Below, piece by piece: positions 12,855-59,258 of a stretch of DNA of 59,258 nt. The position numbers and the translations under genes are program-made. This stretch comes from an uncultured bacterium (GTDB lineage: Bacteria > Hinthialibacterota > Hinthialibacteria > Hinthialibacterales > JAKPRU01): contig CAZTDD010000026.1 of assembly GCA_964612675.1 (NCBI GenBank), positions 1 to 59,258 on the forward strand. The letters are read 5' to 3'. A model generated the notes under the pieces. It saw only the letters and a program-made list of their open reading frames with translations. It ran no database searches and was not told where the DNA came from. The stretch's first letter is position 1. Each line of letters opens with the position of its first letter.

Positions 12855-12882
12855 GACACGCTGCATCCGGGGGAGGGATAAT
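12853..12882 (+). promoter_or_regulatory. near-consensus sigma70-like promoter TTGACA-N18-GATAAT(CCT)
   Basis: TTGACA 12853-12858 and GATAAT 12877-12882. The same GATAATCCT extended -10 occurs at 11653. Confidence 0.5.
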
Positions 12883-12897
12883 CCTACTGTCATCGAG

Positions 12898-13040
12898 TTG
12901 AGCAAGTAGCGAGTTCGCTGCTGGGAGGGCGAGCCTCCCGGCGAGCCGAAAAGCATACTTTGTTGGGAGGGCGAGCCTCCCGGCGAGCCGGACAGTATCC
13001 GAAACTCGGCTCAGCAGGAGCTTCGCCCTCCCGACTCAAT
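12898..13040. mobile_element. MITE-like ~143-bp element carrying three GGGAGGGCGAGCCTCCCGGCGAGCCG hairpin units (two direct, one inverted), flanked by 9-bp direct repeats G[TA]CATCGAG
   Basis: Hairpin units at 12923-12948, 12965-12990 and, inverted, 13007-13032. Flanking direct repeats at 12889-12897 and 13041-13049. The same unit family recurs at 41262-41476. Confidence 0.45.
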
Positions 13041-13151
13041 GACATCGAGGATAATCCTGCAATTGGATTTCTGTCTTACCCGGAAGCGTTTTCTCAGAGG
13101 GTTGTGTGCTGTTCTGCCTCTGCCTTCCAGATCGTAGGTTTTCCTCCCGCT

Positions 13152-17952: not shown

Positions 17953-18264
17953 CGCGTTCCTCCACCAAGCCGTTTGTTCCCAACCGATTCTTATGATTGA
18001 TTGGTTTTTTAGTGATCCTCGCCCATGGCGAAACTTTCACTTTGTGTTGGAAATGATGCCAGACCGGAACCACGCGGACAAGGGATCTTGGAAAAGAGAT
18101 CGTCACCGTGCAACCATTCAGACACGTTAGTTGTATATCTATGCGAATCAATTGGTTACCATTCACGACTCACTCCAGATACTCCGCTCCGAAGAAAAGG
18201 GCACCATGACCGTCATTGCGATCGAATCCGTCATTCCGAGGAGCGGACCGTCGTTCCGAGTCCC

Positions 18265-18406
18265 GGACCGTCGGAGCCGGTGATTTGGGAAAGAAAACGC
18301 GATCTCCGTTGCCGTCATGGCGAGCGAAGCGTGGCCATCTCGTTTTTCCGGTTCAACGGTGAGATTCCCACGTCGCTTCGCTCCTCGGAATGACGGATTC
18401 GGGAGC
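18265..18406 (+). repeat. 142-nt nested-hairpin element, copy 1 (partner at 53394-53535)
   Basis: About 90 % identical to copy 2. Outer stem GAGCGAAGCGTGG/CCACGTCGCTTCGCTC, inner stem ATCTCG/[CT]GAGAT. Ends 84 nt upstream of the radical SAM gene. Confidence 0.7.
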
Positions 18407-18489
18407 GTTTTCTCACAAGGCCCTTAGGATCAAAAACCCTGCCATCGCTGTCCCGTCCCCTGGTACACTTCCTGTAGAGGAGAAAGTCG

Positions 18490-31393: not shown

Positions 31394-32086
31394 TCAGCCG
31401 CTTTGCGCGATGGTTGCGATACATTGATCCTCGCGTACAACCTTCCGGGGACCGCCGTCGTATCCGGTTGACCAATCGTGCGGCGCGGCGATTTCGGTCA
31501 ATCGATCCAGCATGCCGATTGCCTTTGCACGGTCATAGATCAACTGCCAACCACACTCGAGATCCGGATTCACTTCACATTTCCCATCGCGGGAACCTCC
31601 ACACGGACCATTGAACAACCGTTTGGCGCAGCGGCTGATCGGGCAAATTCCCGCGAATTCTCCGAGTCGGCAATTGCCGCAACCGACACACTTCTCGGTC
31701 CAAACGCCTTGCGATTCGAGAATCCCGATGAATTGCGTATTGAGGCCCGGATAAACCGGGGTTTGCGGAAAGCGCTCTGCCAGCGCCTGAACCCCCGCCC
31801 CGCAACCCAATGAGCAGATTGCGTCGTACCCGGCGGCCCGCTGGGCCAGAATATCGATAAATGCGTCTTCGCATTGGCGTTCAATAGTACATTCGTCTAC
31901 AACAACATTTCCACGACCGGCCAATTTCAGGGACATGCGTAACGCCGCCCCCAGGATATTTGTTTCACGTTCCCCGCCGGCCAAACAGACCGTAACACAG
32001 GTACCGCATCCGACAAGCAACACCCGGTTGTGGTCTTTGACCATATCGCGAATTTCCGGAACTGTTTTTCGATCCGCAACAATCAT
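31394..32086 (-). CDS. MetV-like Cys-rich protein (MTHFR C-terminal-type domain)
   Basis: Cys clusters GCGTCVTVC, CGAG, CVGCGNC and NGPCGG...CE resemble the acetogen MetV family. Confidence 0.55.
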   Translation of the reverse strand: MIVADRKTVPEIRDMVKDHNRVLLVGCGTCVTVCLAGGERETNILGAALRMSLKLAGRGNVVVDECTIERQCEDAFIDILAQRAAGYDAICSLGCGAGVQALAERFPQTPVYPGLNTQFIGILESQGVWTEKCVGCGNCRLGEFAGICPISRCAKRLFNGPCGGSRDGKCEVNPDLECGWQLIYDRAKAIGMLDRLTEIAAPHDWSTGYDGGPRKVVREDQCIATIAQSG

Positions 32087-32165
32087 AGAATTTCTCCAAA
32101 AAGGAATTCCCAGCGATGAATCGCTGGGCTATTATCGTTCGTCCATCGGACGGTCCGTCAGGCTT

Positions 32166-32612
32166 TTAGTCTGGGACCGAAATTGCTTCCACCTCTTCGT
32201 GCCCTTTCGGTATGGGACTGGGTCCCAGTCGGGCGACACGTTCGCTCATTTCAGTCACGATTTCAGCGAACCGCCCACCCTCCGCAGAAGAAAGGTTGAA
32301 CATTTCGAGACGTTCGGGTTCTAGACCGATTTCTTCAAGAAGCTTTTTGGCGCGTTCGACCCGTCGACGTGCACGCAGGTTCCCTTCGAGGAAGTGACAA
32401 CCGCCTTCGAGACAACCGGCAACCATCACAGCGTCTGCGCCGCGTTCGAATGCAGCCAGGATATGATTGATCTCGACTTTTCCCGTACACGGTAGCCTCA
32501 ACACCCGCACGTTCTGCGGGTATTGGAGGCGCATCGAGCCTGCCAGGTCCGCAGCCGCGTAGGCGCAATAATGACAACAGAAAGCGAGTATCAGCGGTTC
32601 TTTTTCTGCCAT
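32166..32612 (-). CDS. mvhD: MvhD/FlpD-family iron-sulfur protein
   Basis: FCCHYCAY...CTGKV...GADAVMVAGC.EGGCHF.EGN signature. Confidence 0.85.
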   Translation of the reverse strand: MAEKEPLILAFCCHYCAYAAADLAGSMRLQYPQNVRVLRLPCTGKVEINHILAAFERGADAVMVAGCLEGGCHFLEGNLRARRRVERAKKLLEEIGLEPERLEMFNLSSAEGGRFAEIVTEMSERVARLGPSPIPKGHEEVEAISVPD

Positions 32613-32618
32613 TCGACT

Positions 32619-35600
32619 TTATCCTTTGTGCCAGCGCGGCGGGGCGACTCCCACAAGTTCAGGGTAAGCCAATTCCGTTTCCTCTTTTCTCGCGCCGAGC
32701 AAGCTGTTTACCGCCCCCAGGATTTGCGCGTTCATGTAGTGACGCAGTTGAATTGCCCTGGCGGGACACTCTGCGGTGCAACTCCCACACCCCATACAAA
32801 CCGCCTGTTGAATGACCGCTTTGTTGTCCTGACCGACGGTTGGGGCCATGTATGGGCAAACATGAACGCAGGTCATACAGGAGATGCATTGGTCGGGATC
32901 GACCCATGCGATTTGCGCACTGACCGGCATTTCCTTCTTTGAGAGGATGGAGGCGGCACGCGCGGCCACCGCGTTCGCCTGAGAAATCGTCTCAGTGATG
33001 AATTTCGGCGCATGAGCGGTACCACAGAGGAAGAGTCCTTCGCTCGCGAAATCGACCGGACGCAGTTTCATATGGGCTTCGAGGAAGAAACCATCTGCGT
33101 TTAGCGGTACCCGAAGCAATTCCGACAATTCTTCTCGATCCGCTCGTGGGACCATCGGTGCGGCAAGAACAACCGTGTCCGGATGGATTTCCATTTGGCT
33201 GTTGAGAGAAGGTTCATTAAACCGAAGACAGATGCGTTGTCCTTCGACCGTCAACTCGGGAGGAGTTTCCTGCTCGTAACGAACGAAGAGTACACCTTTT
33301 TCACGCGCCTCGCGGTATGCCGCCTCACGGAATCCGTAGGTGCGCATGTCGCGGTATAGGATCACGATCCGCGCCTTGGGATACCGCTCCAGAAGCAACA
33401 GAGCGTTCTTAACGGCAGTTGTACAACAAACACGACTGCAATACGGATGCTCGTCGTTACGCTGCTCGACACACTGAATCATCGCAATCGTGGGCTCTTC
33501 CGGGATTCCCAGATCCTGCCGCGCCATCCGGTCGGTCAGTTCGAGCTGTGTCACCACACGATTGCTCTTACCGTAACCGAATGAAGACGGCTTCTTTTCC
33601 GTCGCGCCGGTCGCAACCACCACAACGCCGTGTTCAACCTCTTCGACATTCCCGTTCGAACTCAACTGCGAGGTGAATTCGCCAATGTGTCCGTCAACCT
33701 TGTCGATATGTGTATTGAGGTGAACCGTGATCAGCGGGTTTTTCTTTACATTCTCAACGGTATGGGACAGGAATTTCTGAATGTCGTCGCCATCGAGAGT
33801 ACGGTGGATCTGTTGAGCAGTGCCTCCAAGGCGTTCGCCTTTCTCGACCAGATGAACCGGAAATCCCTGCTCCGCCAATGCCAAAGTCGCTGTCATTCCC
33901 GCAATGCCTCCACCGACCACAAGGGCGGCATTGTTGATAGGAACGGTTTCCTCCTCCAGAGGCTGGAGGTTTGCAGCGCGACCGACAATCATACGAATGA
34001 GGTCAATCGCCTTCTCTGTGGCTTTCTGCGGATTGTCGGAATGAACCCAGGAACATTGATCGCGAATGTTCGCCATCTCCAGAAGGTACGGATTCAAACC
34101 GGCGTCCCGTAATGTGTCACGGAAGATCGGTTCATGGGTTCGGGGTGTACAGGAAGCGATAACCACGCGATTGAGGTGCTCATCACGGATGATTTTCTTG
34201 ATTTGATCCTGCGTATCGTCCGCGCAGGTATAGACACTGTGATCCGCGAAAACCACGTTCGGTAGTCCTCGTGCGCGTTCAACAACCTTTTCGATATCGA
34301 CCACGGAGGCGATGTTGCTGCCGCAGTGACAGATGAAAACACCGACTCTCGGCGGCTCGTCCGTGATGTCTCGTTCCTGTGGATAGGATTTCGTACGGAC
34401 TTCCGTGCCCCGTGCCGCTGAAAGCAACGCCATTGCGCGGGCCGCCGATCCGGTTGCCTGCATCACCGTATCGGGGATGTCTTTCGGCTCCTGAAAAACC
34501 CCGCCCACAAAGACACCCGGACGGGAAGTCTCGAGCGGAGCCAGTTCACGGGTTTTCGCGAAGCCCCATTGGTTTAGTTCGACGCCAATCTTTGCCGCTT
34601 GCTCCCGAATCGACTCGCTCGGTTCCAAGCCGAGTGAGAGGATAACCATGTCGAACTCTTCTTCGACCTGCTTTAGGTCGGAGCTGAAGTAATTCAACCG
34701 AAGGTTATGCGTGCCGGGCATTTCGTAGGTCCGAGAGACAAAAGACCGGACATAATGAATGCCCATTTTCTTTGCGCGCTCGCAGTAGCGGTCAAAGTCC
34801 TTGCCGAAAGCACGCAGATCGAGAAAGAACACCGTCATGTCCAGATCCGGCTCGTGCTCTTTCGCCAGGATGGCCTCTTTTGTTGCCGCCATACAGCAAA
34901 TCGACGAACAGTAATCGTTACCGCATCCGTTGTCGCGCGAACCGACACATTGAATGAACGCCAATCGTTTGGGTTTCTTGCCGTCGGATGGTCGGACGAT
35001 GTGCCCTTCGGTCGGTCCGGAAGCGGACAGGATTCGTTCAAACTGCACATTCGTGACAACGTTGGGAGCAAATCCGAAACCGAACTCGCCCCTGCGCGTT
35101 GCATCGAACGCATCGAAACCCGGTGTGAGCAAGACCGCACCAACGTCTAGATCGAAAGACTTCTCAGGTTCGAAATGATTGATCGCCCCGGCCTGGCAGG
35201 CTTCCACACACAGCATGCATTCCGCGCACCCCGCACATGCCAGACAACGCCGCGCTTCCGCCTGCGCTTCGTCTTCACTGTATGTCGCTTCCACCTCCCG
35301 AAAGTCCGATAGCCGTTCGACAACAGGGACTTCCTGATGTGGAACGCGAGGAGCGCGTTTTGTTCTCTTTTTGATTTTTGCGAGTTCCTCATCCGAAAGT
35401 GGGTTCAACCGTTTCTCGCGCTTCGAGAGTCCCTCTTGAACCGGCCTTTCGGCAAGATAGTTGTCGATAGCCTGTGCCGCCTGTTTCCCGTGCGCGATTG
35501 CGTCGATCACGCTTGACGGGCCGACGACCACATCGCCTCCGGCAAAGACATTCTCACGTGATGTAACCATCGTGACCTCATCGGTCTCGATGGTCCCCCA

Positions 35601-37145
35601 GCGCGATGTTTTCAGTTCGAAAAGCTGTGCGAGTTTCTGGTCGGCCGATTGACTAACCGCCGGAATGAGAGTGTCTGCCTCAATTGTGAACTCGGAACCT
35701 TCGACCGGCACCGGACGTCGGCGGCCGCTTTCATCGGGTTCGCCCAATTCCATGCGGATGCATTCGATGGCGGATACACGATTGTTCTCGGATCGAACTT
35801 TCGTAGGCGCTGCGAGATAGTGGATTTTGATATCCTCAGCCAAGGTAGCGTCGATTTCCGATTCGTCGGCAGGCATCTCTTGGCGCGTACGTCGATACAC
35901 AATAGTGACTTCGTCCGCTCCGAGCCGTTTCGCCGTTCGCGCAACGTCGACCGCCGTGTTGCCGCCCCCGATAATCACAATTCGTTTCCCTGCCCCTGTC
36001 GGTTCACCGAGGGTGTGTTTTCGGAGGAAATCGACACCGTGGACAACTCCCTCGGTATCCTCTCCTGGAATCCCGAGTTTTCGACTGTGATGAGCCCCCG
36101 TCCCCACGAAGATCGCATCGAATTGGCTCTCCATTTGTTCGACGGAAATGCCGTCGCCAACAGGAGTCGCCGTCTTGAATTCGACACCGAGAGATCGAAT
36201 CCCGTCGAGATCCCGCTTCAGGATATCGGGTGGAAGTCTGTATTGGGGGATTCCGACTGCCAACATTCCCCCCAGAACGGGCAGCGCCTCGAAAACGGTA
36301 ACGTTATGGCCCTTAAGAGCCAATGAGTGGGCCGCTGCCAGCCCTGCTGGTCCGGAGCCGACAATCGCAACCGATTTGCCGGTCGATTGAATTCCTTCAG
36401 GTGGTTCGCTTGAAGGATACAGATCCATTGCAAACCGTTTCAGGCCGCGAATATTGACCGGTTCGTCGATCGCGCCTCGATTGCATTCACTCTCACAGGG
36501 GTGAAAACAGACACGCCCGCAGATCGAAGGAAGAGGATTCTCGCGGCGAATTACTTCAGCGGCCTCTTTGAATTTTCCGTCGCCGATAAGAGCAACGTAG
36601 GCTTGGACACTGTGATCGATGGGACAGCCCGAACTGCAGGTCGCACGACCGTTTTTCTGGATGACATTCGCATTCGGAGCCGCCTGGGCGTATACACGAT
36701 CGATTGCCTTCCGTGTCCCGAGACCGGCGTCGAACTGACTCGGAAGATCCACGGGACATACTTTTGTACAGTCGCCGCATGCCGTACATTTATCGACGTC
36801 GATAAAACGCGGCCGTTGACGAATCGTGGCTTTGAAATTCCCTTGGTCTCCTTCAAGTCCGTCCAACTCCGCCATTGTATAAACGTCGATGTTGTGATCC
36901 CTCAAACATTCGACGAGTTTTGGTGAAATAATACAGGTAGCGCAGTCGCCGGTTGGGAACGTTTTATCGAGGCGGGACATGCCTCCACCGACAGCCGCGT
37001 TCTGCTCAACGAGATAAACACGAAACCCGGCCGCCGAAAGATCCAGGGAAGCCTGTATCCCGGCGACGCCCGCACCGGAGACCAACACCGCGCCGCGCGG
37101 TTCTTTGCCATTTGTCGAGGATGTCTTCTGCTGGACTTCACTCAT
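32619..37145 (-). CDS. 1508-aa HdrA-family fusion: HdrA(N) + ferredoxin + GltD/NfnB-like NAD(P)H-FAD module + ferredoxin + HdrA(C) + second complete HdrA-like module + ferredoxin
   Basis: GAGVAGIQASLDL and TFPTGDCATCII (HdrA). ICGRVCFHPCESEC with GSGPAGLAAAH and RMELGEPDESGRRRPV (GltD-like). CVGSRD..YCSSICCM (HdrA core). A second AALVVGGGIAGM..CVEQRNDEHPYCSRVCC module follows. Stop/start overlap with hdrB. Confidence 0.85.
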   Translation of the reverse strand: MSEVQQKTSSTNGKEPRGAVLVSGAGVAGIQASLDLSAAGFRVYLVEQNAAVGGGMSRLDKTFPTGDCATCIISPKLVECLRDHNIDVYTMAELDGLEGDQGNFKATIRQRPRFIDVDKCTACGDCTKVCPVDLPSQFDAGLGTRKAIDRVYAQAAPNANVIQKNGRATCSSGCPIDHSVQAYVALIGDGKFKEAAEVIRRENPLPSICGRVCFHPCESECNRGAIDEPVNIRGLKRFAMDLYPSSEPPEGIQSTGKSVAIVGSGPAGLAAAHSLALKGHNVTVFEALPVLGGMLAVGIPQYRLPPDILKRDLDGIRSLGVEFKTATPVGDGISVEQMESQFDAIFVGTGAHHSRKLGIPGEDTEGVVHGVDFLRKHTLGEPTGAGKRIVIIGGGNTAVDVARTAKRLGADEVTIVYRRTRQEMPADESEIDATLAEDIKIHYLAAPTKVRSENNRVSAIECIRMELGEPDESGRRRPVPVEGSEFTIEADTLIPAVSQSADQKLAQLFELKTSRWGTIETDEVTMVTSRENVFAGGDVVVGPSSVIDAIAHGKQAAQAIDNYLAERPVQEGLSKREKRLNPLSDEELAKIKKRTKRAPRVPHQEVPVVERLSDFREVEATYSEDEAQAEARRCLACAGCAECMLCVEACQAGAINHFEPEKSFDLDVGAVLLTPGFDAFDATRRGEFGFGFAPNVVTNVQFERILSASGPTEGHIVRPSDGKKPKRLAFIQCVGSRDNGCGNDYCSSICCMAATKEAILAKEHEPDLDMTVFFLDLRAFGKDFDRYCERAKKMGIHYVRSFVSRTYEMPGTHNLRLNYFSSDLKQVEEEFDMVILSLGLEPSESIREQAAKIGVELNQWGFAKTRELAPLETSRPGVFVGGVFQEPKDIPDTVMQATGSAARAMALLSAARGTEVRTKSYPQERDITDEPPRVGVFICHCGSNIASVVDIEKVVERARGLPNVVFADHSVYTCADDTQDQIKKIIRDEHLNRVVIASCTPRTHEPIFRDTLRDAGLNPYLLEMANIRDQCSWVHSDNPQKATEKAIDLIRMIVGRAANLQPLEEETVPINNAALVVGGGIAGMTATLALAEQGFPVHLVEKGERLGGTAQQIHRTLDGDDIQKFLSHTVENVKKNPLITVHLNTHIDKVDGHIGEFTSQLSSNGNVEEVEHGVVVVATGATEKKPSSFGYGKSNRVVTQLELTDRMARQDLGIPEEPTIAMIQCVEQRNDEHPYCSRVCCTTAVKNALLLLERYPKARIVILYRDMRTYGFREAAYREAREKGVLFVRYEQETPPELTVEGQRICLRFNEPSLNSQMEIHPDTVVLAAPMVPRADREELSELLRVPLNADGFFLEAHMKLRPVDFASEGLFLCGTAHAPKFITETISQANAVAARAASILSKKEMPVSAQIAWVDPDQCISCMTCVHVCPYMAPTVGQDNKAVIQQAVCMGCGSCTAECPARAIQLRHYMNAQILGAVNSLLGARKEETELAYPELVGVAPPRWHKG

Positions 37146-38029
37146 TGCGATTCAACTCCACAAGCCGCTGTCTTATTTCCGAACAAAGGTTCCGCACTCA
37201 CAGTCAGCGCTGTTAGACCGAGTTCCTCTGAGGACAGTCCCAACGCGAGTCCTAGAAGCTGTGTTATATAAAGCACGGGCGTATCGGAGATACCGCCGTG
37301 AGCTTGTCTCATGTCCGATTGCCGTAGGTCGAGATTGGCCTGACATAACGGACACGCAACTACCAAACAATCTGCGCCGGCCTCACGCGCCATAGTGAGG
37401 AGTCTGTAGCCAAGACGGCTTACGACATCGGAATTCGTCAGCGACAGCCCTGCACCGCAGCATTCGGTTTTGTAAGGCCAAGAGACGGAAAAAGCTCCGA
37501 CCGCCTCAACCAGCTCGTCCATACACGTCGGATTCTCCGCATCGTCGAACGCAACCACTTCCGGTGGCCGCGACAAGAGACAACCATAATAGCTCGCGAC
37601 ACGCAAACCTTTCTGAGAAGCAGTGACCTTCCTGCGAATCACGTCCGGTCCGATATCGTTCATTAACACATCGAGGATATGGCGCACTGCCACGCTACCG
37701 TCATAGGAACGGCCCACGATGCGGTTGGTTCGCTCTCGCTCTTCGGGATTGTTCTTGACCTTGTAATTGGCTGTCCGAAGACGCGCATAACAGGAGGCAC
37801 AAGCGGTCAGCACATCGAGCCCCATGGTTTGAGCCTTTTGGAGGTTCATCACAGGCAGCGCCACCGCGAGAGAAGCGTTGCTGGTATGCGCGGGAGTCGA
37901 TCCGCAACACACCCAGTCCGGTATTTCCTCGAGCTCAATATCCAAAGCCCGGCATAGCGCTCGGGTCGAGCGATCGAAATCCCAAGCCGTCGATTCAAGA
38001 CTACAACCGGGATAATAAGCGTATTTCAC
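37142..38029 (-). CDS. hdrB: heterodisulfide reductase subunit B (two CCG domains)
   Basis: Duplicated C..CCG..C...C motifs (WVCCGSTP and TECCGAG). Confidence 0.9.
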   Translation of the reverse strand: MKYAYYPGCSLESTAWDFDRSTRALCRALDIELEEIPDWVCCGSTPAHTSNASLAVALPVMNLQKAQTMGLDVLTACASCYARLRTANYKVKNNPEERERTNRIVGRSYDGSVAVRHILDVLMNDIGPDVIRRKVTASQKGLRVASYYGCLLSRPPEVVAFDDAENPTCMDELVEAVGAFSVSWPYKTECCGAGLSLTNSDVVSRLGYRLLTMAREAGADCLVVACPLCQANLDLRQSDMRQAHGGISDTPVLYITQLLGLALGLSSEELGLTALTVSAEPLFGNKTAACGVESQ

Positions 38030-38592
38030 CGCTTCCTCTCCTCTTCTTGGGCTCGGCGAAAGACCTCTCTAACCTCGCCCGCGCTTCCGCTGCGCGATGG
38101 GAGAAGAGAGAGTTTTCCTTTCGAGAACATTTTCGGTGCTTTGTCTACGTCGGAAAAGAAGTCGCCGGATCGGATTTTGTAGGCGGTCAACATGCCCAGT
38201 TCGAAAACGCGCCCGTGACGGCGAACGCTCTGCAGAAACGAACGATTGAACCGCTCTCCGCGCGAGTCGGGAACCGACACTTTTCGCTCAACCGCCATCA
38301 TCCGCAGTGTGTCCATGACGGCGGCGATGTCAATTCCCATAGGGCAGCGCGTTGTACAGGCTTCACACGACGCACACAGCCAGATAGCGCGCGATTCGAG
38401 AGCCTTCGATTCCTCGCCGAGATGAATCAGACGCATAATCTGACTGGACAGAAAATCCATTTCCGGAGCAACCGGGCAGCCGGTTGAACACTTGTGGCAT
38501 TGGAAGCACGCACTAACCGGAGTGCCGCTGCGGCGTTCCACCTCGTGCAAAAAGCGAGTCTCTTTCCATTCAACTGTTGAAGTCATCTTCAT
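38026..38592 (-). CDS. hdrC: heterodisulfide reductase subunit C (2x[4Fe-4S])
   Basis: CFQCHKCSTGCP and CASCEACTTRCP. Confidence 0.88.
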   Translation of the reverse strand: MKMTSTVEWKETRFLHEVERRSGTPVSACFQCHKCSTGCPVAPEMDFLSSQIMRLIHLGEESKALESRAIWLCASCEACTTRCPMGIDIAAVMDTLRMMAVERKVSVPDSRGERFNRSFLQSVRRHGRVFELGMLTAYKIRSGDFFSDVDKAPKMFSKGKLSLLPSRSGSAGEVREVFRRAQEEERKR

Positions 38593-41261
38593 TCACTCAA
38601 TAATTCAAAATCGGGTTCCGGCTCTTCCTGTGCCATGGCGCTGGGAACGACTTTCCGATACACCTCGAATGGTTTCCGCAACACGCCATCGACAGTCAAA
38701 AGGTCTCGTTCGATCTCTATACCGAACAGACGCTCGTTCTCTCGCAGATAGGGTAGTATCAATTTCCAGTCTTCGGCTGTAAGCGATTGGTACGCTCCGG
38801 CGTTGAGCTGTTCCTGCACAAGCGTGCGATGCGGATCGCGAACGTAAATCGCGCCTCCGGAGGCCAGAGAAAGCAGATTGCTGCCCGGGTAAGGCAAATC
38901 CAGAGGAACGACACGGCCGTTCTCATCGAATCGGATACCATTCACAATTGCGAATCCGCCTCCCTTGAGTGGGTCGCCCGCCATGAACGACTCCGCCAGG
39001 AAATCGAGAGCGGTTCCGTTAATCACCACCCGGGGTTTCCCGACAGCGTTGATCATCGGCCTCCCGGCGGCGTTCCCCATGACATAGAATTCCCCGCCCT
39101 TCGCACCGTAAAGAAACGTCTGACCGACGTCGCCGTAAATCACGATTTTGCCTCGTTTGGCAATTTGGCAGAGCTGATCCTGCGCGTTGCAATGAACAAG
39201 CGCTTCGAGACCGTCTAGACCGGACCCGAGATAATCGCCGGGATTGTCATAACAATCCACACGAAGCCCGTCGGAGCTGGGACCGAAACCGGCCGCGTGA
39301 AAACGCGTCCCCCGCGTGTTGTAATGGATCAACCATTTCCAGCCGAGCTGGTAGGCATCGACCGCGAGTTTCGCGTCGCACGTCGGACCTTCGGGTGTAA
39401 AACCTCTCGCGTCAATCAAAAGGACTCTTTCGCCCGGGCGAGGTTCGCGGAGATCTTCACGTATCTCCCAATTCACTCTGCGACATGTTGACTCCGCTGT
39501 ATCGGTAAGAAGCGGTTGGCTCTCGAAAATCTTTCCAAGCCCGTCACGCAGAATGGTCAGAATGGAACTTCGCTTTTTCTCTCCGGTTGGATACTGACGG
39601 TCTAAACAAAGGGTCAATGCCTGGATACCGAGAAGCGGGTTGCTCTCTCCGCTTCGTTTTGCCGTTTCATCGACAAACCACCGAAGGCGGTCGTATGTCA
39701 TTTCCGCGAGAGAATCGCGAAAATACTCAAAAATGACTACAGGATTGTTACTCTCAATCGCACGTTGAATTTCCGCAGCGTCTCGCTCGCGTTCCTGCTC
39801 GGAAGGGGTCTTTAGTTCGGCGGTTGGTTTGTAAGCAACCTGATTTTGAGGCACCGTTACAGGAAGGCCGAACTTATTCGTCACTTGCATCGAGTAATGA
39901 CCGTTGCTGCCCGCAGAGCCGTTCGACGGGACAACATTCATCGCAAATGCCCCACCGTCCGAGTAACTTCCACCGCGCGCGTTCCAGTACATATCCGCAA
40001 CAGGCCGGAAACGGTTGTCTTCGGACGACAAACTGGCCAACGTCGCATCAATCGCCTGTTTTTCGGAACAGATCAACCCGGTAGAGACTTCGCCTTCCTG
40101 TAACGCGAAAACTTGCGGCCGCAGCATCGCTGTATCCGTGATTCCAACCAATTGATAGCCGGCTTCTTTTCCGAGATTGCGCGCAATGATGAAAAACCAC
40201 GGACCGTCGGGCGATCCGTGCATATGTGCCGCCTGGATTTGACGATAAATCCGACGCTTGTCCGCAGCCAACCGGTCGAAGTCCAGTTCGGTAGTCGGTG
40301 CGAGCGCTTCGATGATGTATTCCAGGGGATACTTGTATGTCCGGTTCATTAAATCGAAAAGAAGTACCGAGACTTCAGTATCTGTAATAAACAATGGAAA
40401 TAGATTCCGCTGCGCAAGATACTCGCTGACCGAAACATAATTGGCAAAGTCGCCGTTATGTACCAGCGCTTCGTTCATCCCAATGAACGGGTGGGCTCCG
40501 CCGGGATGCCATACACGACCACGCGTTGGATAGCGCTGGTGAGCGATCCACACATGGGCACGTAAATCCGGCATCCGGTAATACTGAACCGCAGCCTCGG
40601 CGTATCCCACGATTTTAATGATAAAGAGATTCCGAGCGTGCGAGAGAACGAAAGCCCGCTTCTCGCCCAAAGAAGAATAGAATTCCGTATTCAACAGAAA
40701 CGAATTCTGAAAAACAAATTCATCCTCGATTTCGCGTTCGGGAAGATGAGTCAGTCCTTTTTCCTGAGCGAACTGTGCGAGGACGTCCGACTTCACACGA
40801 ACGAAATACCGGGCGACTTCCGGGGGTTTGATCTCCAGCAATGGTACGTCCCGGTAATCGTCGACAGTTGGAATCACCCCTCCCTGATGAATATCGAAGT
40901 ATGGCTCGATACGGCTCTTTTCGACATCCTTCTGCGCCTCAGGATCCAAGAGGGCGATTTGGAGGATATAGTCTTCGTCGATCTCTTTTTGCGTGACGCC
41001 CAGATCCTCGGGCACAATCCCGCATGCGGCAATTCCGCCTCCCCGTCCGTTTCCGCGATTCCGCATTTGGATGGAGGGCTCGTAGATGTGACGGCCCCCG
41101 ACAGGGACGGTACAAGCGAATCCCGTCACACCGCAGCCGCCCTCGGCTTCCGTGGGTTTTGGGAACCAGGATTCGCCCTCTTTAGGCCGCAGATGGGATC
41201 GCGACCGAATCAGCATATTGGCCCGATTCAAGTTATTGATTTCCATTGTCTTTGAACTCAT
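38589..41261 (-). CDS. glutamate-synthase-like fusion: class-II glutamine amidotransferase (GltA-like) + GXGXG domain (GltC-like)
   Basis: The GGCGVTGF Ntn-type Cys is preceded by ~40 aa. C-terminal IVIYGDVGQTFLYGAKGGEFYVMGNAAGRPM...NGTALDF GXGXG repeats. Confidence 0.75.
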   Translation of the reverse strand: MSSKTMEINNLNRANMLIRSRSHLRPKEGESWFPKPTEAEGGCGVTGFACTVPVGGRHIYEPSIQMRNRGNGRGGGIAACGIVPEDLGVTQKEIDEDYILQIALLDPEAQKDVEKSRIEPYFDIHQGGVIPTVDDYRDVPLLEIKPPEVARYFVRVKSDVLAQFAQEKGLTHLPEREIEDEFVFQNSFLLNTEFYSSLGEKRAFVLSHARNLFIIKIVGYAEAAVQYYRMPDLRAHVWIAHQRYPTRGRVWHPGGAHPFIGMNEALVHNGDFANYVSVSEYLAQRNLFPLFITDTEVSVLLFDLMNRTYKYPLEYIIEALAPTTELDFDRLAADKRRIYRQIQAAHMHGSPDGPWFFIIARNLGKEAGYQLVGITDTAMLRPQVFALQEGEVSTGLICSEKQAIDATLASLSSEDNRFRPVADMYWNARGGSYSDGGAFAMNVVPSNGSAGSNGHYSMQVTNKFGLPVTVPQNQVAYKPTAELKTPSEQERERDAAEIQRAIESNNPVVIFEYFRDSLAEMTYDRLRWFVDETAKRSGESNPLLGIQALTLCLDRQYPTGEKKRSSILTILRDGLGKIFESQPLLTDTAESTCRRVNWEIREDLREPRPGERVLLIDARGFTPEGPTCDAKLAVDAYQLGWKWLIHYNTRGTRFHAAGFGPSSDGLRVDCYDNPGDYLGSGLDGLEALVHCNAQDQLCQIAKRGKIVIYGDVGQTFLYGAKGGEFYVMGNAAGRPMINAVGKPRVVINGTALDFLAESFMAGDPLKGGGFAIVNGIRFDENGRVVPLDLPYPGSNLLSLASGGAIYVRDPHRTLVQEQLNAGAYQSLTAEDWKLILPYLRENERLFGIEIERDLLTVDGVLRKPFEVYRKVVPSAMAQEEPEPDFELLSE

Positions 41262-41476
41262 ATCCGTCTCGGCTCGGCGGGAGCCTCGCCCTCCCGGGCC
41301 TGTCGCCTTCTGAATTTGGCTCCCCTAGTCCTTCTCGGCTCGGCAGGAGCCTCGCCCTCCCGGGCCTGTCGCCTTCCGGATTTGTCTCACCTAGTCCTTG
41401 AACTCATGTTCGTCTCGGCTCGGCGGGAGCCTTGCCCTCCCGGGCCTGTCGCCTTCCGGATTTGTCTCACCTAGTT
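41262..41476. repeat. three tandem 66-80-bp units, each with a GGGAGGGCGAGGCTCCCGCCGAGCCG hairpin (minus-strand sense), between two operon genes
   Basis: Units start near 41267, 41333 and 41413. Each also duplicates the first ~14 nt (ATGAGTTCAAG) of the downstream gene start. Confidence 0.75.
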
Positions 41477-43039
41477 TTGCGGAGAGCCTTCGTAATCTAA
41501 ATGCGTTAGTAAATCGGTCCGCCCGCGAAGGGCCTGTACTGAGTCGAGTCCCAGGCGATACAAGATGTCGATCAACATCTCGCGCCAGGCGTTGTACATG
41601 TTCACGAGTCTCTGGGTACACCAATCGATGGTGACCATTTCCAGAAGTTCCGGGTCCGTCGTTGCGATTCCGCGTGCACAGCCTCGCCCGCTCTCACAAC
41701 AACCGCATCGGATACAGCCCAGAGCGACAAGTTCCGCCGTGCCGATAATGACGCCATCCGCTCCCAGGGCGATCGATTTCGCAATATCGTCAGGCGTCCG
41801 TATGCCGCCGCTGACCATCAGACTCACTTCATCGCGGACCCCTTCATCCACGAGGAAGCTATGTACCATGTTGATGGCATACTCGATCGGCATCGCAATG
41901 TTCTTTTTCGCGATGTTCGGCGCGGCTCCGGTCCCTCCGTAGCTTCCATCCAGATGAACAATGTGCGAGCCCGCACAATACGATCCGACTGCTACCATAT
42001 CCACATCGGCGGGAGTCGAGACTTTCGTCGAAAGAAGCGCCCGCGGATTGATGTGGGCTATCCAATCGAGATGTTTCTTATGATCTTCGATGGAGTAGAC
42101 ACTGTGAAATGGAAACGGCGAGAAAAGAGACGTACCGACAACCGCCTCGCGCATCCTCGCGACATCGGGAGTATTCTTGTCGCCGAGAAGGTGTCCGCCG
42201 AGGCCCGGCTTGGCACCCTGTGCGTACTTGAATTCGACGATTCGTGCACGTTGAATGGTCTCTTCCCGTACTCCGAATAGTCCGGTGGCGACCTGGGTGA
42301 TCATGTGATCCGCGTAAGGAATCATCCGGTCGGGATATCCGCCTTCTCCCGTGCAGCTGAACGAATTCCAGGCTTTCGCCGCCCGCGCCTTCGCCAACAA
42401 AGCCCGCAGGTTGGTCGACCCGTACGACATCCCGCCACCGTACCACGGAATATCGATTTTCACTCTCGGACGCGAGTCGTTGCGCCGATTCAGTACCAGT
42501 TCCGTAGAAATATCTTCGCGCCGTAAATCCGCAGGCGGAGAGTCCGGGAACAGAAATCGGAGACGATCGAAACCGCCACCGGATGCGCCGATTGCACTTT
42601 CAAGATGGGGCGGCGGCACCTCACCGGTCTCGGCCATCATCCATGTAGCAACCAGCAAATCCGCCGGCCATCGATGATCGCCCATGGTATCGAACGCCGG
42701 ATTTCGGCTGAGGGAGAGCGCACCGACCGGACAAGTATCGATGCAGTAATGGTCCGTCTTGGCACAGTCAAAGCCGATACAACGATAGTCAAACGGACGC
42801 GTCATACGGCGGTATCCCTCGGGACGGACATGCACCTCGTGAGGGCAGGTTTCGACGCATTTTCCACAAGCGATACAGTTGGACGCCCGGAACAGGCTGA
42901 ACTTGCCGATCTCGTTCCGGTAACGTGGCGGCGCGGGATTCAATTCTCTTGAGACCTTTGCGTACTCGGGCTTTGACGCGAATTCATCGCCGCGTTGCGG
43001 GTGAATCGTGGATACATCGGCTGCCGGTGTTGCGTTCAT
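41471..43039 (-). CDS. archaeal-type glutamate synthase FMN-binding (GltB-like) subunit with N-terminal 2x[4Fe-4S]
   Basis: CIACGKCVETCP..CIGFDCAKTDHYCIDTCP, then MVSGGIRTPDDIAKSIALGADGVIIGT FMN barrel, then CIRCGCCESGRGC. Confidence 0.8.
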   Translation of the reverse strand: MNATPAADVSTIHPQRGDEFASKPEYAKVSRELNPAPPRYRNEIGKFSLFRASNCIACGKCVETCPHEVHVRPEGYRRMTRPFDYRCIGFDCAKTDHYCIDTCPVGALSLSRNPAFDTMGDHRWPADLLVATWMMAETGEVPPPHLESAIGASGGGFDRLRFLFPDSPPADLRREDISTELVLNRRNDSRPRVKIDIPWYGGGMSYGSTNLRALLAKARAAKAWNSFSCTGEGGYPDRMIPYADHMITQVATGLFGVREETIQRARIVEFKYAQGAKPGLGGHLLGDKNTPDVARMREAVVGTSLFSPFPFHSVYSIEDHKKHLDWIAHINPRALLSTKVSTPADVDMVAVGSYCAGSHIVHLDGSYGGTGAAPNIAKKNIAMPIEYAINMVHSFLVDEGVRDEVSLMVSGGIRTPDDIAKSIALGADGVIIGTAELVALGCIRCGCCESGRGCARGIATTDPELLEMVTIDWCTQRLVNMYNAWREMLIDILYRLGLDSVQALRGRTDLLTHLDYEGSPQN

Positions 43040-43042
43040 TTC

Positions 43043-44437
43043 CTACTGTGCTCCAACCTGGACCTTCCTCTTTCCAAAGATACGTCCGAATGTGTTGCGT
43101 TCAAGATCCTCAAAGAACATACAGCGGCCTGTTTCGCCGCGCAGACGACGAACCTCACGGATCCCCATAGCGCCCAGCATCTCCAACAGCTGGCTATGCC
43201 ACGCGCTCATCAGATTGACAATCCTCTGGACGGCGTATTCAGGATCGGCTTCGTCCAGCGCGACAGGACACATCTCGCCGTGCTCGCATTCGCCGCAGAG
43301 TCTGCATTCCAATGCGACAATGAGGGGAACATCGATAGCGATCAGGTCCGCTCCGCATATCACCGCTTTGGCCATGTGCTCGGCTAGAGCGATTCCCCCG
43401 GAGGCAATGATGGTTACCTCGTCGCGTGAGCCTTCCTTGACCAATGCGCCGTGTACATCCCGCAAGACATCGCGCATATGTCTCGGATCGGGCGCAACAT
43501 CCTCTTTTCCGTGGATATCGAACCGAATATGAATCACCTCAACGCCTGCCCGGGTCAATTCGAGGACTCGATCCGTGACTCGCGGAGTCGCGAAGAGGCG
43601 TACGGCGACAACCTGGCTGGGGTTCTTTTCTTTCAGTGCTTGACATGTGGAGGAAATGTCGTCCCGCTCCGGTACCATGACCATCGGCGCGGAGGCGAAT
43701 GTCTCGACCTCCGACGGGTCGGAAACCAGTGGAATAATATGTCCTCCGAGCGTCTCTTCAATGATCTCGCTCTCTCGTAAAACGGCCATTGTGCCGATTT
43801 CCGCGGCCGCTTTGGCAACCGACCGTACCACAGGGCCTCTGCACCAATGGTCCGGAATGATGTCGAAAATCAACGGAAGCGGCGTCTCCAGCAACGGGGG
43901 AAAGGGATCATCCTGTCGATCGTCTTGAAAAGTCAGGTGAGACAGTTTTCGGCCGATATCGACGCTTGTGTTGATGTATTCCCGGCCGTGGATACCGTCC
44001 CGGGTGGGCCGCACGATCTCGGACATGTCCGTCCACATGGAATCGAATCCCGAGCCACTGAACGGTCCGCCGTAGCCCGCGCCGGTCACGGGGATTTTGC
44101 CGGTTTCCGCCTGGAACCACGTTGTAAGGATAGTGTCTGGAGTATAATAGTGGTCCCCGAGCCGCCGGTATTCAGGATTCACAACGCGGGTCAGAATCCC
44201 CTTCGTACAGTCCTGAACACAGTTCAGGCAGCCTTTGCACTGATAGATATAGTCGAGATACCCGAGTTCATCGCGCAAGGTATCGGCTTCTTCGCGATAG
44301 AAACCGTAAACACAGCTTCGTTTGACACAATTATGACAGCTGGAGCAGTCTTCCCGCCAATCCACGATTCCGAGTTTGCCGACGGGTCGTGTGCGGGGAG
44401 AGACCGGAACGGGATGGATTGTGTACTTTATTGGCAC
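43043..44437 (-). CDS. second GltB-like FMN-domain paralog with N-terminal ferredoxin
   Basis: CSSCHNCVKRSC..CKGCLNCVQDC, then IIASGGIALAEHMAKAVICGADLIAID, then CRLCGECEHGEMC. Confidence 0.7.
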   Translation of the reverse strand: MPIKYTIHPVPVSPRTRPVGKLGIVDWREDCSSCHNCVKRSCVYGFYREEADTLRDELGYLDYIYQCKGCLNCVQDCTKGILTRVVNPEYRRLGDHYYTPDTILTTWFQAETGKIPVTGAGYGGPFSGSGFDSMWTDMSEIVRPTRDGIHGREYINTSVDIGRKLSHLTFQDDRQDDPFPPLLETPLPLIFDIIPDHWCRGPVVRSVAKAAAEIGTMAVLRESEIIEETLGGHIIPLVSDPSEVETFASAPMVMVPERDDISSTCQALKEKNPSQVVAVRLFATPRVTDRVLELTRAGVEVIHIRFDIHGKEDVAPDPRHMRDVLRDVHGALVKEGSRDEVTIIASGGIALAEHMAKAVICGADLIAIDVPLIVALECRLCGECEHGEMCPVALDEADPEYAVQRIVNLMSAWHSQLLEMLGAMGIREVRRLRGETGRCMFFEDLERNTFGRIFGKRKVQVGAQ

Positions 44438-44439
44438 GG

Positions 44440-45372
44440 CTAATCGATCCTTAGTCCTGTTTTTTGAATCACTTCCAGTGTCGCATCTTCATCGCCGCAG
44501 ATCTCGAATCCCCGCAACCCCTCAATCGATGAGAGCCGCTGAATGGCCTCCACAGCGATGTCGATTCCCGCAGAACGCTGCGCCGTCTCCTCGGTTTGTG
44601 ACTGGATGCGCTCAATGAGAGCATCCGGCACTCTTGGCGATGGACGTTTGGCTGCAAATTCTCTGGCGGACTGCGCATCCGTCAGGATATGGATACCCGC
44701 CAGTATAGCAGTCTTCTTATGGACACCGGTCTCAGCGACCTGTTTCCACCAGATGTCGAAGCGGTCTATGTCGAAAACCGGCTGAGTAATCAGAAACTGA
44801 GCCCCTGCGTTCACTTTCTTCACGACCCGCATCACCTGCAGTTCCATCGGGTCCGCGAAGGGGGAGGCGACAGCACCGAGACAGAACGGACCTGCACCAT
44901 TCAATTGCTCTTGCCCAACAATCGACGCATCGGATTCGATCCTCGAAATTGCCTGGATCAACTGAGTTGAATCGATGTCGAAAACGTTTTTCGCGGCTCG
45001 CGAACGTCCCAAGGTTTGGTGAGCGCCGGTATTGGAGAGAACGTTCCGAATGTTGAGGGCAGCGGCCCCAAGGATGTCGGATAGAAGTGCGATACGGTTT
45101 CTGTCGCGTGTGACCATGTGGAGGATCGGCTCCACACCTTCAGCGTTGAGCAGCGAAGCTGCTGCGAGAGCCGACATCGTGACCCCGTCCCGGTTGTCGC
45201 TCACACCGACGGCATGCACTTTGCCGCTGAGTTTCTTGGCTGCGTTTCGAATCGGTTCGGGATCGGCGCTCGACGGGGGCGCTATCTCGGCAACGACAAT
45301 TGATTGCCCCGATTGGATTCGTTTATGAAGTGCTGTTTTCGCTTTGTCCATTGTCCTCAACCTGTCATACAT
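44440..45372 (-). CDS. metF: 5,10-methylenetetrahydrofolate reductase (acetogen-type MetF)
   Basis: MTHFR TIM-barrel similarity (SIVVAEIAPP..., ...LITQPVFD...). Immediately upstream of the glt-like and hdr genes with a 2-nt gap. Confidence 0.75.
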   Translation of the reverse strand: MYDRLRTMDKAKTALHKRIQSGQSIVVAEIAPPSSADPEPIRNAAKKLSGKVHAVGVSDNRDGVTMSALAAASLLNAEGVEPILHMVTRDRNRIALLSDILGAAALNIRNVLSNTGAHQTLGRSRAAKNVFDIDSTQLIQAISRIESDASIVGQEQLNGAGPFCLGAVASPFADPMELQVMRVVKKVNAGAQFLITQPVFDIDRFDIWWKQVAETGVHKKTAILAGIHILTDAQSAREFAAKRPSPRVPDALIERIQSQTEETAQRSAGIDIAVEAIQRLSSIEGLRGFEICGDEDATLEVIQKTGLRID

Positions 45373-45437: not shown

Positions 45438-45857
45438 TTATTCAGCTCTGAGGAGCGGACTATCACCTAATTCTGCAAACCGGGAAACCGCAGAACGAAT
45501 CTCGTTCTCAAGCTTCTCGGGAGCATCCTCAGGAGAACACTCAAGTAATCGGACCCGGTCGGGTTCAATTCCGATTTCCGAGAGAAGCCGCTGAACAGTA
45601 TGAGTCCGCACCTCCGCTCGATAGTTGCCCTGCGCCAGTCGACATTCGCCTTTCGGACACGCGACAACGCAAACACCGCGTCCGCCTCCTTCAAGAGCAT
45701 GAAAGAGATATTGGATATCGATTTTGCCGCTGCACGGGATCTCCTGGACGCGCACATGTACGTCGTCCTGCTTCCATTGACGGGGGACCTTTGCCCCGTG
45801 AGGTACGCAGTTGTGGCAGACATAAACCAGTACATCGGGACACACAGGATTCGTCAT
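45438..45857 (-). CDS. second MvhD/FlpD-family protein (first gene of the operon)
   Basis: VYVCHNCVP...PCSGKID..LFHALEGGGRGVCVVACPKGECRLAQGN. The ATG at 45857 has an AGGTG RBS; the track start at 45953 lacks one. Confidence 0.75.
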   Translation of the reverse strand: MTNPVCPDVLVYVCHNCVPHGAKVPRQWKQDDVHVRVQEIPCSGKIDIQYLFHALEGGGRGVCVVACPKGECRLAQGNYRAEVRTHTVQRLLSEIGIEPDRVRLLECSPEDAPEKLENEIRSAVSRFAELGDSPLLRAE

Positions 45858-46018
45858 TGGGTTAGCCACACCTACTTTTCTCTTCGATATGGGGTACGTA
45901 CCTCGAATATCGACAAAGGGTACCAAACGGCCTTTGCGGACCGCTGGTCTCATGTATCGAATCCGAGCAACAAGAGAGAGAAATGTTTACTCTGCCAGCT
46001 GGAACCTGTCAACCCTAG

Positions 46019-48250: not shown

Positions 48251-48760
48251 ACGAAGAACCTCGAAATGCGTTTACTGAATTATTCGGAGGAAGTGCCATA
48301 ATGAACGAAAACACCGAACAGAAACCAAAGCCGGGAATCTGTATACCATGGGAAGAAAAACTGAAAGAAATTCCCGAGATCCAAGGCGATCATGAAATCG
48401 TTAAACAAAAATGGGAAGAAAACGAGTTTTTTGCACACCTGTATGTGTGGCATTGTCTTGTCTCGTTTTAATGAGGATTTTGATTCCGTCACAAGCCCAC
48501 GCGAAACGTGGTAATCGTAGGGTCGGCTCACGGGCGTTATATCGGAACATTCCTTCCGACTCATTATCACGTAAGCCCGTAGCCCACCACTATCTGTTCG
48601 GAATTCGCACCAAGCAACCGGTTGGTGGGCTACGGGCTCCAGTAGACATTAACCGGACACCGCAGCGCGATACGACGCCCGTGAGCCCACCCTACAGCCG
48701 TCCACCAGACTTCTTGCCCCCCGTCAGATTTTGGCGGTCCCGCAAAAAGTCCGGAGCGTT

Positions 48761-48970
48761 CTTCTCCCTCTCCCTCTGGGAGAGGGCCGGGGTGAGGGAA
48801 CGTTGCATTTTCCGGTGACGTTCCATTGTACGTGACAGACCCCTGTCATCATCCAACCCCTTTGCCGCTGATTCATTTGCTGTCTCTGACGAATACACAG
48901 GCTAGTCATGATAAACGAACCCGATGCAATTAACGCCCCTCACCCTACCCCTCTCCCGGGGGGAGAGGGA
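48761..48970. repeat. inverted pair of CCCTCACCC..CCCTCTCCC-N3-5-GGGAGAGGG palindromic units flanking ~135 bp
   Basis: Units at ~48761-48797 (reverse orientation) and ~48938-48970. The same family occurs at 59093-59258. Confidence 0.6.
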
Positions 48971-53287: not shown

Positions 53288-53393
53288 GAAGGCTGAATCG
53301 AAAGTTCTTGTAAGCATAAAGCCGAGGAAATCGGCGATTTAAAAAGAAAATGTGAGTGTTTGCATCCGGTTACTTTGCCGTCATCGGGAGCCA

Positions 53394-53535
53394 CGGACCG
53401 TCGGAGCCGGTGATTTGAGGAAGAAACCGCGGTCCCCGTTGCCGTCATGGCGAGCGAAGCGTGGCCATCTCGTTTTGTCCGATTCAACAGCGAGATTCCC
53501 ACGTCGCTTCGCTCCTCGGAATGACGGATTCGAGC
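53394..53535 (+). repeat. 142-nt nested-hairpin element, copy 2
   Basis: Same length and about 90 % identity to 18265-18406. A partial extra arm lies at ~53374-53393. Ends ~100 nt upstream of the SDR gene. Confidence 0.7.
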
Positions 53536-53637
53536 GCGTAGGGTGGGTTAGCGACGATCTGTCTGCAGACACTCCCGACGCGCACTTCAGAGGAGCGTAA
53601 CCCACCGAAACCACTTTATCGCTTAAGAAAAAAAACA

Positions 53638-59246: not shown

Positions 59247-59258
59247 GTCTTCTTTTCT
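59093..59258. repeat. two copies of the 55-bp unit CCCTCTCCCAGAGGGAGAGGGGACTGGTTGTCTTTGGCAGCAAGTCTTCTTTTCT, 96 bp apart, running into the window edge
   Basis: Copies at ~59108-59162 and ~59204-59258. An internal palindrome CGGAGAGCGGACTCTCCG lies between them. Confidence 0.65.

Follow-up and report, generated by a model that had tools for sequence, protein, structure and literature searches.

The window analysed here, the whole 59,258-nt contig CAZTDD010000026.1 of an uncultured bacterium labelled Hinthialibacterota, carries on its minus strand an operon in which a GltB-like gene is followed by a GltA/C-like fusion gene. A gap of 209 nt lies between the stop codon of the former (TAG 41473-41471) and the ATG of the latter at 41261. 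Together with 12 nt of the downstream open reading frame (ORF), this gap consists of three head-to-tail units, spanning 41248-41475 and read here in mRNA sense. One 25-nt core, GGGAGGGCRAGGCTCCYGCCGAGCC(G), is present per unit. In the direction of transcription, the junction contains the following features:

41471-43039, minus strand: upstream gene, GltB-like flavin mononucleotide (FMN) subunit with a 4Fe-4S domain (PF01645); stop codon TAG 41473-41471
41396-41475, minus strand: unit A, 80 nt; its 5' ACTAG holds the real TAG stop of the upstream gene and its 3' end is the decoy ATGAGTTCAAGG
41416-41441, minus strand: core copy of unit A, GGGAGGGCAAGGCTCCCGCCGAGCCG
41387-41407, minus strand: decoy ORF of six codons, MSSRTR* (ATGAGTTCAAGGACTAGGTGA, ATG AGT TCA AGG ACT AGG TGA)
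41330-41395, minus strand: unit B, 66 nt; unit A minus 14 nt (the CGAACATGAGTTCA equivalent) and thus without the ATG
41336-41361, minus strand: core copy of unit B, GGGAGGGCGAGGCTCCTGCCGAGCCG
41250-41329, minus strand: unit C, 80 nt; its 3' end ATGAGTTCAAAG forms the first four codons of the long GltA/C ORF
41270-41295, minus strand: core copy of unit C, GGGAGGGCGAGGCTCCCGCCGAGCCG
38589-41261, minus strand: downstream gene, GltA/C-like fusion (GATase_6 + GXGXG); candidate starts ATG 41261 and ATG 41246

The units are identical at 64 of 66 (A and B), 72 of 80 (A and C) and 60 of 66 positions (B and C). Tandem Repeats Finder scored 41263-41399 with 232, and a repeat search returned three copies of 82 nt with spacings of 66 and 80. 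ACTAGG, the stop-codon context of the upstream GltB-like gene, opens every unit, and units A and C terminate in ATGAGTTCAA(A/G)G, which in unit C is the start of the long GltA/C ORF with its first codons. Thus, the unit borders coincide with the stop codon of the upstream gene and codon 4 of the downstream gene. At the borders of the duplicated segment (left GCAAA/ACTAGG, right TTCAAAG/ACAATGG, the slash marking the border) a microhomology is common to both sides. An earlier, sequence-only reading of this contig had described three tandem units; they are real and head to tail, but its lengths of ~66, ~80 and ~64 bp correspond to another phase of the 80/66/80 array.

The same reading had proposed that the array copies the 5' end of the downstream gene. 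The last unit does contain the ATG at 41261-41259, but the statement depends on the choice of start. Two ATGs, 41261 and 41246, are in frame, and the evidence on them is ambiguous: the database protein of the contig (P0001, 885 aa) begins at ATG 41246, and an 84% relative (P0002) begins MSS like ATG 41261. A decoy start followed by a stop had likewise been described. It exists as MSSRTR at the A/B junction, with its TGA supplied by ACTAGGTGA of unit B, but it lies 146 nt upstream of ATG 41261 and not 140 nt. The core itself is free of stop codons in all six frames and can therefore seed spurious ORFs; ORFs that run through the array (41152-41634, both strands) encode RLGGSLALPG, GSAGASPSR and ARREPRPPG. 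Spurious 'hypothetical proteins' annotated in G+C-rich genomes are therefore likely to stem in part from the core family.

We then compared the core with the remainder of the unit. The window holds six copies of the 26-nt core, three in the array and three at 12923-13032, while chance would predict 0.00. The non-core 55 nt of the unit comprise 35 nt upstream of the core (GACAAATCCGGAAGGCGACAGGCCC) and 20 nt downstream of it. They were found in the three units of the window only and in none of 138 family loci; a search of metagenome contigs with the unit-specific flank gave no match, and the core copies at 12.9 kb have flanks unrelated to those of the array. Since the non-core sequence is repeated and yet unique to this locus, three independent insertions are very unlikely, and the unit borders at the stop codon and at codon 4 point to a triplication of the whole ancestral spacer. 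Separate arrivals of a 66-80-nt mobile element that prefers this site or its own copies could draw on the ability of HuH-Y1-type elements to insert beside existing copies, and core clusters are common in the family. However, the unit outside its 25-27-nt core is absent elsewhere in the window, in the fetched loci and in metagenome contigs, the flanks of other family members are unrelated, and the unit ends match the stop and start contexts of the two genes. The claim that a mobile repeat family colonised the gap thus holds for the core, which belongs to a large interspersed family, but not for three colonisation events, as the flanks are repeated as well and unique to the locus.

We therefore favour a neutral or selfish local triplication of a spacer carrying an element that resembles a repetitive extragenic palindrome (REP), and give this explanation a probability of roughly two thirds. 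The array has the properties of a simple local tandem duplication: a whole head-to-tail unit is repeated, it is unique to the locus, and microhomology lies at its borders. Originally, the GltB-like and GltA/C genes would have been separated by a spacer of ~63 nt, the length that a single-unit ancestor would leave, with one REP-like element of 25-27 nt in it. An 80-nt segment that begins with the stop-codon context and extends into the GltA/C gene as far as codon 4 would then have been duplicated head to tail twice, probably by slippage or unequal exchange at the flanking CAAA(G)AC microhomology, and 14 nt would later have been lost from one copy. Judged from the borders, this microhomology would be enough to explain the operon array. 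The products would be three hairpins of -10 to -12 kcal/mol and a six-codon decoy ORF in front of GltA/C, and any effect on mRNA stability or translation would be a by-product rather than a demonstrated function.

The family to which the core belongs was collected with the exact 25-mer containing four degenerate positions, and copies were counted with up to four mismatches. The matches listed, to which all family counts refer, comprise at least 118 stretches from a genome collection, at least 120 metagenome stretches and 15 viral contigs, with at least 463 copies in 254 loci (1.69 Mb). That is, the core is not confined to the two loci of the window, in agreement with the sequence-only reading. 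Among the 118 listed genome stretches, 95 (~80%) are labelled Planctomycetota. The remainder belong to about ten other phyla, with the labels Verrucomicrobiota (including a 462-kb contig), Armatimonadota (Chthonomonas), Ignavibacteria (contigs of 1.76 Mb and 1.57 Mb), Acidobacteriota, Nitrospirales, Binatia, Lentisphaerae, Zixibacteria, Thermodesulfobacteriota, Fervidibacter, Alphaproteobacteria and Alcaligenaceae (contigs of 198 kb and 220 kb). These are the labels of metagenome bins, and several of the non-planctomycete matches are on contigs of 0.2-1.8 Mb.

Comparison of the copies yielded the element formula Y-GGGAG-[GGC GA GSC TCCY GSC GA GCC]-G, 25-27 nt in length, in which a 5' foot is followed by a small hairpin. 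Among 46 distinct sequences, the covarying pairs were 6-25, 7-24, 8-23, 11-20, 12-19 and 13-18, corresponding to the stems 6-8/23-25 and 11-13/18-20. We counted 18 double-change cells versus 3.0+-1.5 in shuffles (0 of 500 shuffles reached this value), and shifting the partners destroyed the pairing signal. In the enlarged set, pair 11-20 was GC in 378, AT in 69 and CG in 4 copies, pair 12-19 was GC in 429, CG in 23, TA in 2 and AT in 1, and pair 8-23 included TA in 10. Between the two stems, G9 A10 and G21 A22 hardly vary and would make up a tandem G.A 2x2 internal loop. The loop TCCY is nearly invariant as well, and the GGGAG foot is present in more than 95% of the copies. The supported hairpin is also the minimum-free-energy fold of the 26-mer, with -10 to -12 kcal/mol for RNA and about -5 for DNA.

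Two other stems were considered and rejected. The GGGAGG/CCTCCC-type stem-loop of the sequence-only reading, in its GGGAG/CTCCY form, showed no double change in the 46 distinct sequences and gives way to the hairpin above; a GGCTC/GAGCC stem showed no covariation and is broken by the covarying changes observed. The array and the single units did not fold better than shuffled sequences (z = 0.11, 0.08, 0.28 and -0.80). Searching the window against Rfam 15, we found no match at the gathering score except Acido-Lenti-1 (32109-32152), and between 41150 and 41600 only a chance HgcE match of 13.9 bits up to E = 10. A full-text literature search with the core string in both orientations found no paper. 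No Rfam model thus exists for a 25-nt sequence that Planctomycetota share base for base with about ten other phyla and that has clean compensatory changes in its stems.

The copies occur as 163 singletons, 117 convergent doublets, one divergent pair and 19 clusters of more than two copies, 16 of which contain adjacent copies in the same orientation; up to seven copies were present within 14 kb on other contigs. In the convergent doublets the GGGAG feet point outward, and the spacers measure 2-84 nt and are unrelated between loci. The arms differ at the stem-variant positions (11, 12, 19 and 20) in 29 of 63 doublets, each arm keeping its own pairing, which indicates that the constrained unit is the hairpin of each arm and not an arm-to-arm hairpin. 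Both variants are found in the window, C12/G19 at 12923 and 12965 and A11/T20 at 13007. Flanks are not conserved in the family, except that a pyrimidine precedes the core in 84% of the copies and a G follows it in 77%. Flanking direct repeats of 127 doublets, analysed for target-site duplication, were not above shuffled left/right pairs, palindromes did not extend around doublets beyond shuffled controls, and there was no conserved internal sequence between the doublet arms.

With respect to genes, 62 clusters were located between co-directional, 24 between convergent and 19 between divergent neighbours, which are near-random proportions. No orientation bias was detected, 21 single-orientation clusters being sense and 15 antisense, which is weak evidence. 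Both statistics use crude longest-ORF calls in G+C-rich DNA, and about one third of the clusters lie 'inside' long, possibly spurious ORFs. The lack of a bias argues for an element acting at the level of DNA and not for an RNA-level cis-regulator, which should show such a bias. From its distribution, the family would appear to behave as selfish or neutral DNA. A host function at the DNA level is highly doubtful in our view. In that case, the three cores would act as adjacent sites bound by a host protein, the whole becoming stronger with amplification, much as bacterial interspersed mosaic elements (BIMEs) in E. coli bind integration host factor (IHF), gyrase or Pol I. The near-invariant foot, loop and G.A positions across phyla, with stems that covary, would fit protein recognition, and the distribution is independent of orientation. 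But recognition by a transposase predicts the same features, no candidate protein is known, and the copies are scattered in variable contexts that follow no positional rule.

Direct arrays in which the core is repeated together with a locus-specific spacer were found at other family loci as well. Their periods are 44 nt (L001), 45 nt (L019), 40 nt (L036), 41 nt (L055, at least three copies), 58 nt (L103), 27-33 nt (L118, at least four copies), 35 nt (L173, four cores) and 42 nt (12.9 kb in the window); the 66/80-nt array in the operon has the longest period among the family arrays seen. Local tandem amplification of the core with its adjacent locus-specific spacer would accordingly seem a recurrent property of the family, and slippage at a stalled hairpin, unequal exchange and aberrant strand transfer by a nicking enzyme are candidate mechanisms. 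Comparable arrays in many independent assemblies also speak against the notion that a short-read metagenome assembly mis-counted or chimerised the repeat. In favour of this notion, the contig was derived from a metagenome, repeats are error-prone in such assemblies, and the GltA/C protein of the window is recorded from one NCBI contig. Yet each unit fits within a single read, and with 2-8 differing positions and a 14-nt indel between units the path is fixed; we regard an artefact as extremely unlikely.

By eye, the unit joins in some arrays (L001 845-982, window 12923-13032) fall on GGGAG, a motif present both as the 5' foot of the core and in the loop of a copy in reverse complement (CGGGAGC), a hint that DNA is broken and rejoined there. 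Another arrangement was seen on the viral contig IMGVR_UViG_3300047160_025820 (L132). There, inverted arms of 130 nt (5030-5159 and 7723-7852), 89% complementary and each with a core doublet, enclose a 2.56-kb segment with three ORFs, none of them transposase-like, which may be an invertible or composite segment.

Besides the two genes that flank the array, the operon comprises the following genes, in transcription order:

45438-45953, minus strand: MvhD/FlpD-like
44440-45372, minus strand: MetF
43043-44437, minus strand: first GltB-like FMN/Fe-S subunit
38026-38592, minus strand: HdrC-like
37142-38029, minus strand: HdrB-like
32619-37145, minus strand: HdrA-like fusion, 1508 aa
32166-32612, minus strand: second FlpD-like
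31394-32086, minus strand: gene for the MTHFR C-terminal domain DUF5981

Five other junctions were checked (44437/44440, 43039/43043, 38589-38592, 38026-38029 and 37142-37145), and all of them measure at most 4 nt or overlap. The array therefore occupies one open junction of an otherwise tightly packed operon. Neither a sigma-70-like promoter nor an intrinsic terminator was detected in 40800-41900, which makes read-through transcription plausible. Judging from this arrangement, the array is probably transcribed within the operon mRNA, and GltA/C would have to start translation de novo. An Rfam Acido-Lenti-1 match (32109-32152, plus strand; 37.6 bits versus a gathering score of 37) was located in the 79-nt spacer between the FlpD-like (32166-32612) and DUF5981 (31394-32086) genes, on the strand opposite to the operon genes. 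With it, the operon that carries the array has structured elements in two of its intercistronic gaps.

We compared the GltB-like/GltA/C junction in relatives, which were chosen by matches to the GltA/C protein and bear the labels Thermoguttaceae, Sumerlaeota, Hydrogenedentes and Binatia. Among relatives with 73-74% identity, L262 and L263 show a 4-nt overlap of the two genes and L264 a distance of 22 nt between them, and L121 (76%) has a plain spacer of 52 nt. In L119 (84%), a gap of 412 nt is occupied by two other repeat families: three copies of GGGGAGGGTTAGGGTGGGGTTGA lie beside four tandem cgtaRatgtgcttatttaa at the orthologous junction (3640-3790). L120 (78%) carries 2.4 kb of toxin-antitoxin genes at 7642-9972, namely two PIN-domain genes (PIN, PIN_3) and a HicA/HicB pair, and L123 (76%) an insert of ~1 kb (8996-9703) with a Polbeta nucleotidyltransferase gene and a HicB-like (UPF0150) gene. 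Given how widely its content varies, the junction is apparently a permissive landing pad in this clade, where foreign DNA gathers and no particular spacer is required. The array separates two cistrons that overlap in more distant relatives and would thereby break the stop/start coupling seen there. In L120 and L123, the operon halves are evidently separable by kilobases.

These comparisons bear on whether the array regulates the operon. As an intercistronic element of the malE-malF kind, its three sense hairpins would block 3'-5' exonucleases or attract endonucleolytic processing, and the long spacer with its decoy ORF would remove translational coupling, with different levels for the MvhD/MetF/GltB-like and the GltA/C-HdrCBA halves. 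The array does lie within an operon whose other checked junctions are tight, read-through is plausible, and its sense-oriented cores each reach -10 to -12 kcal/mol as RNA. The core was kept in all units despite a divergence of 3-10%, and protective intergenic 3' structures in operons are an established mechanism in E. coli (Dar & Sorek 2018, PMC5927463). However, we consider such a role unlikely, because the array and its units are no more stable than shuffled sequences, the family has no orientation bias (21 sense versus 15 antisense), and the junctions of relatives tolerate any content, be it an overlap of 4 nt or foreign genes spanning 2.4 kb. Rather unlikely, too, is a reading that joins such a role to mobility: the core, with its GGGAG foot and a tandem G.A hairpin akin in architecture to the class 3 HuH-Y1 hairpins, would be a so far undescribed cross-phylum REP-like class, mobilised in trans and amplifying locally with adjoining host sequence, and the operon array would secondarily have been recruited to uncouple the mRNA halves for a MetF/GltB-like/GltAC/HdrABC-type electron-bifurcating complex and to give them different stabilities. 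For the operon, the outcome is mostly deflationary. One local triplication would explain the array, in a junction that accepts almost any insert in this clade.

The second family locus of the window is a composite element:

12898-13040, plus strand: direct cores 12923-12948 and 12965-12990 (C12/G19) and an inverted core 13007-13032 (A11/T20)

The sequence-only reading had taken this element to be built from the same unit as the array, and indeed it contains two direct copies and one inverted copy of the core. An outer inverted repeat, TTGAG(C)...(G)ACTCAA, surrounds the cores, and the element folds with z = -6.7. A near-perfect 9-nt direct repeat brackets it (GTCATCGAG at 12889-12897, GACATCGAG at 13041-13049), and GGATAATCCT is found on both outer sides (12876-12885 and 13049-13058). 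It looks like an insertion of the miniature inverted-repeat transposable element (MITE) type with a target-site duplication and REP-like cores inside. The element lies ~290 nt downstream of a UPF0175/PIN (VapBC-like) toxin-antitoxin pair (11761-12195 and 12192-12608), and just upstream of it, at 12817-12853, there is a 19-nt tandem repeat of 1.9 copies (TCTTCTGAAATAGCCTATG).

Other repeats in the window include an interspersed repeat of ~160 nt, unrelated to the core, with copies at 18248-18408 and 53378-53539 that are 35 kb apart and ~90% identical (families D2 and D4). Two more short repeat families (10-186, 48759-48969 and 59089-59258) consist of GGGGGAGGTTAGGAGGGGGTTGA-type units and CCCTCTCCC(A)GAGGGAGAGGG hairpins. 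The GGGGAGGGTTAGGGTGGGGTTGA repeat at the L119 junction is a close variant of these short repeat families.

By analogy with known elements, the most likely mobiliser of the core would be a putative single-strand HuH-Y1 enzyme, similar to the REP-associated tyrosine transposases (RAYTs) or class 3-like, that acts in trans. We searched for its gene in several ways. All-against-all clustering of the ORFs of 118 loci returned, by eye, only common planctomycete families (DUF1501-like and DUF1549/1553-like proteins, kinases, MoxR-like proteins). The genes between spaced copies in L005, L026 and L132 were ordinary, and core matches in a plasmid collection were at chance level only. The class 3 hairpin of Legionella is present in L. 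adelaidensis records, and at three sites inspected there was no transposase.

Several points weigh against a neutral or selfish triplication of a mobilised REP-like element. HuH and Y motif scans found no HuH-Y1 ORF in the 254 loci (1.69 Mb) around the 463 copies, and phmmer gave no match with an approximate E. coli RAYT query. The foot of the core also departs from those of known elements. With GGGAG it lacks both tags of classical REPs, GT[AG]G and CGTC (Di Nocera 2013, PMC3733652; Bertels & Rainey 2011 cited there). Nor is it strictly the CnGA that characterises the 5' foot of class 3 hairpins, whose genes carry the motifs NHVH ... YV[VI]xEQ (PMC6006769); GGGA(G) shares only ..GAG with CCGAG, CAGAG, CGGAG and ACGAG. 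For the duplications, both order and age can only be inferred. A divergence of 3-10% among the units means that the array is either old or maintained, which leaves room for selection, and neutrality is an argument from absence of evidence.

Among known systems, MITEs (Correia/NEMIS, ERIC, RUP) resemble the doublets, whose 25-nt arms could pass for terminal inverted repeats enclosing a short spacer; they also resemble the composite at 12898-13040 in its outer inverted ends and possible 9-nt direct repeat. Unlike MITEs, however, the family shows no target-site duplication above control and no conserved internal sequence, and the array at 41 kb is direct throughout. The malE-malF intergenic REP hairpins, reportedly described by Newbury et al. 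in 1987, share with the array repeat-derived stem-loops in sense orientation in an intercistronic gap of a multi-subunit operon. The hairpins of the array are small, though, and its predicted stability equals that of shuffled sequence.

Classical REPs, BIMEs and REP doublets forming hairpins (REPINs), the RAYT-associated elements of E. coli and Pseudomonas, resemble the core family in several respects. They too are short imperfect palindromes (20-40 nt) with a conserved unpaired 5' tag and a stem-loop, they occur as extragenic singletons, inverted doublets and clusters without target-site duplication, and they may sit between cistrons. In contrast to classical REPs, which are usually lineage-specific, the exact 25-mer of the core is common to about ten phyla. 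The arms of core doublets are often distinct stem variants, so that a long REPIN hairpin is not conserved, and the operon array is not a REPIN doublet, as all three of its copies are direct.

The architecture of the core is that of the poorly studied class 3 HuH-Y1 hairpins. Class 3 HuH-Y1 (TnpA_Y1) genes occur mainly in Planctomycetes, Acidobacteria and Proteobacteria and are flanked by REP-like 'atypical secondary structures' (Quentin et al. 2018, BMC Genomics 19:475, PMC6006769), with ~600 copies of the class 3 structure in Solibacter (PMC6006769). Their hairpins (Table S1 in PMC6006769) are CCGAG-CCGC-GA-CC-GTAA-GG-GA-GCGG in Legionella, CAGAG-CCGC-GA-CC-GTCA-GG-GA-GCG in Solibacter and ACGAG-CCG-GAA-GC-GTCA-GC-GA-CGG in Planctopirus; written in the same way, the core is GGGAG-GGC-GA-GGC-TCCY-GCC-GA-GCC. 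The stem sequences differ, the loop is TCCY in the core and GTNA in class 3, and no class 3 gene was found near any of the 463 core copies. By eye, both have a foot ending in GAG, a G+C outer stem of 3-4 bp, a GA/GA 2x2 loop, an inner stem of 2-3 bp and a tetraloop. Near-identical sequences across distant phyla (in class 3, Legionella and Solibacter) and an overlapping taxonomic range are further likenesses. Thus, the core looks like a class 3-type REP, which is a resemblance and not demonstrated membership. Were the core linked to its enzyme, the REP/RAYT picture would reach the Planctomycetes-Verrucomicrobia-Chlamydiae (PVC) group, and such a link could explain the repeated capture of neighbouring host sequence into short tandem arrays.

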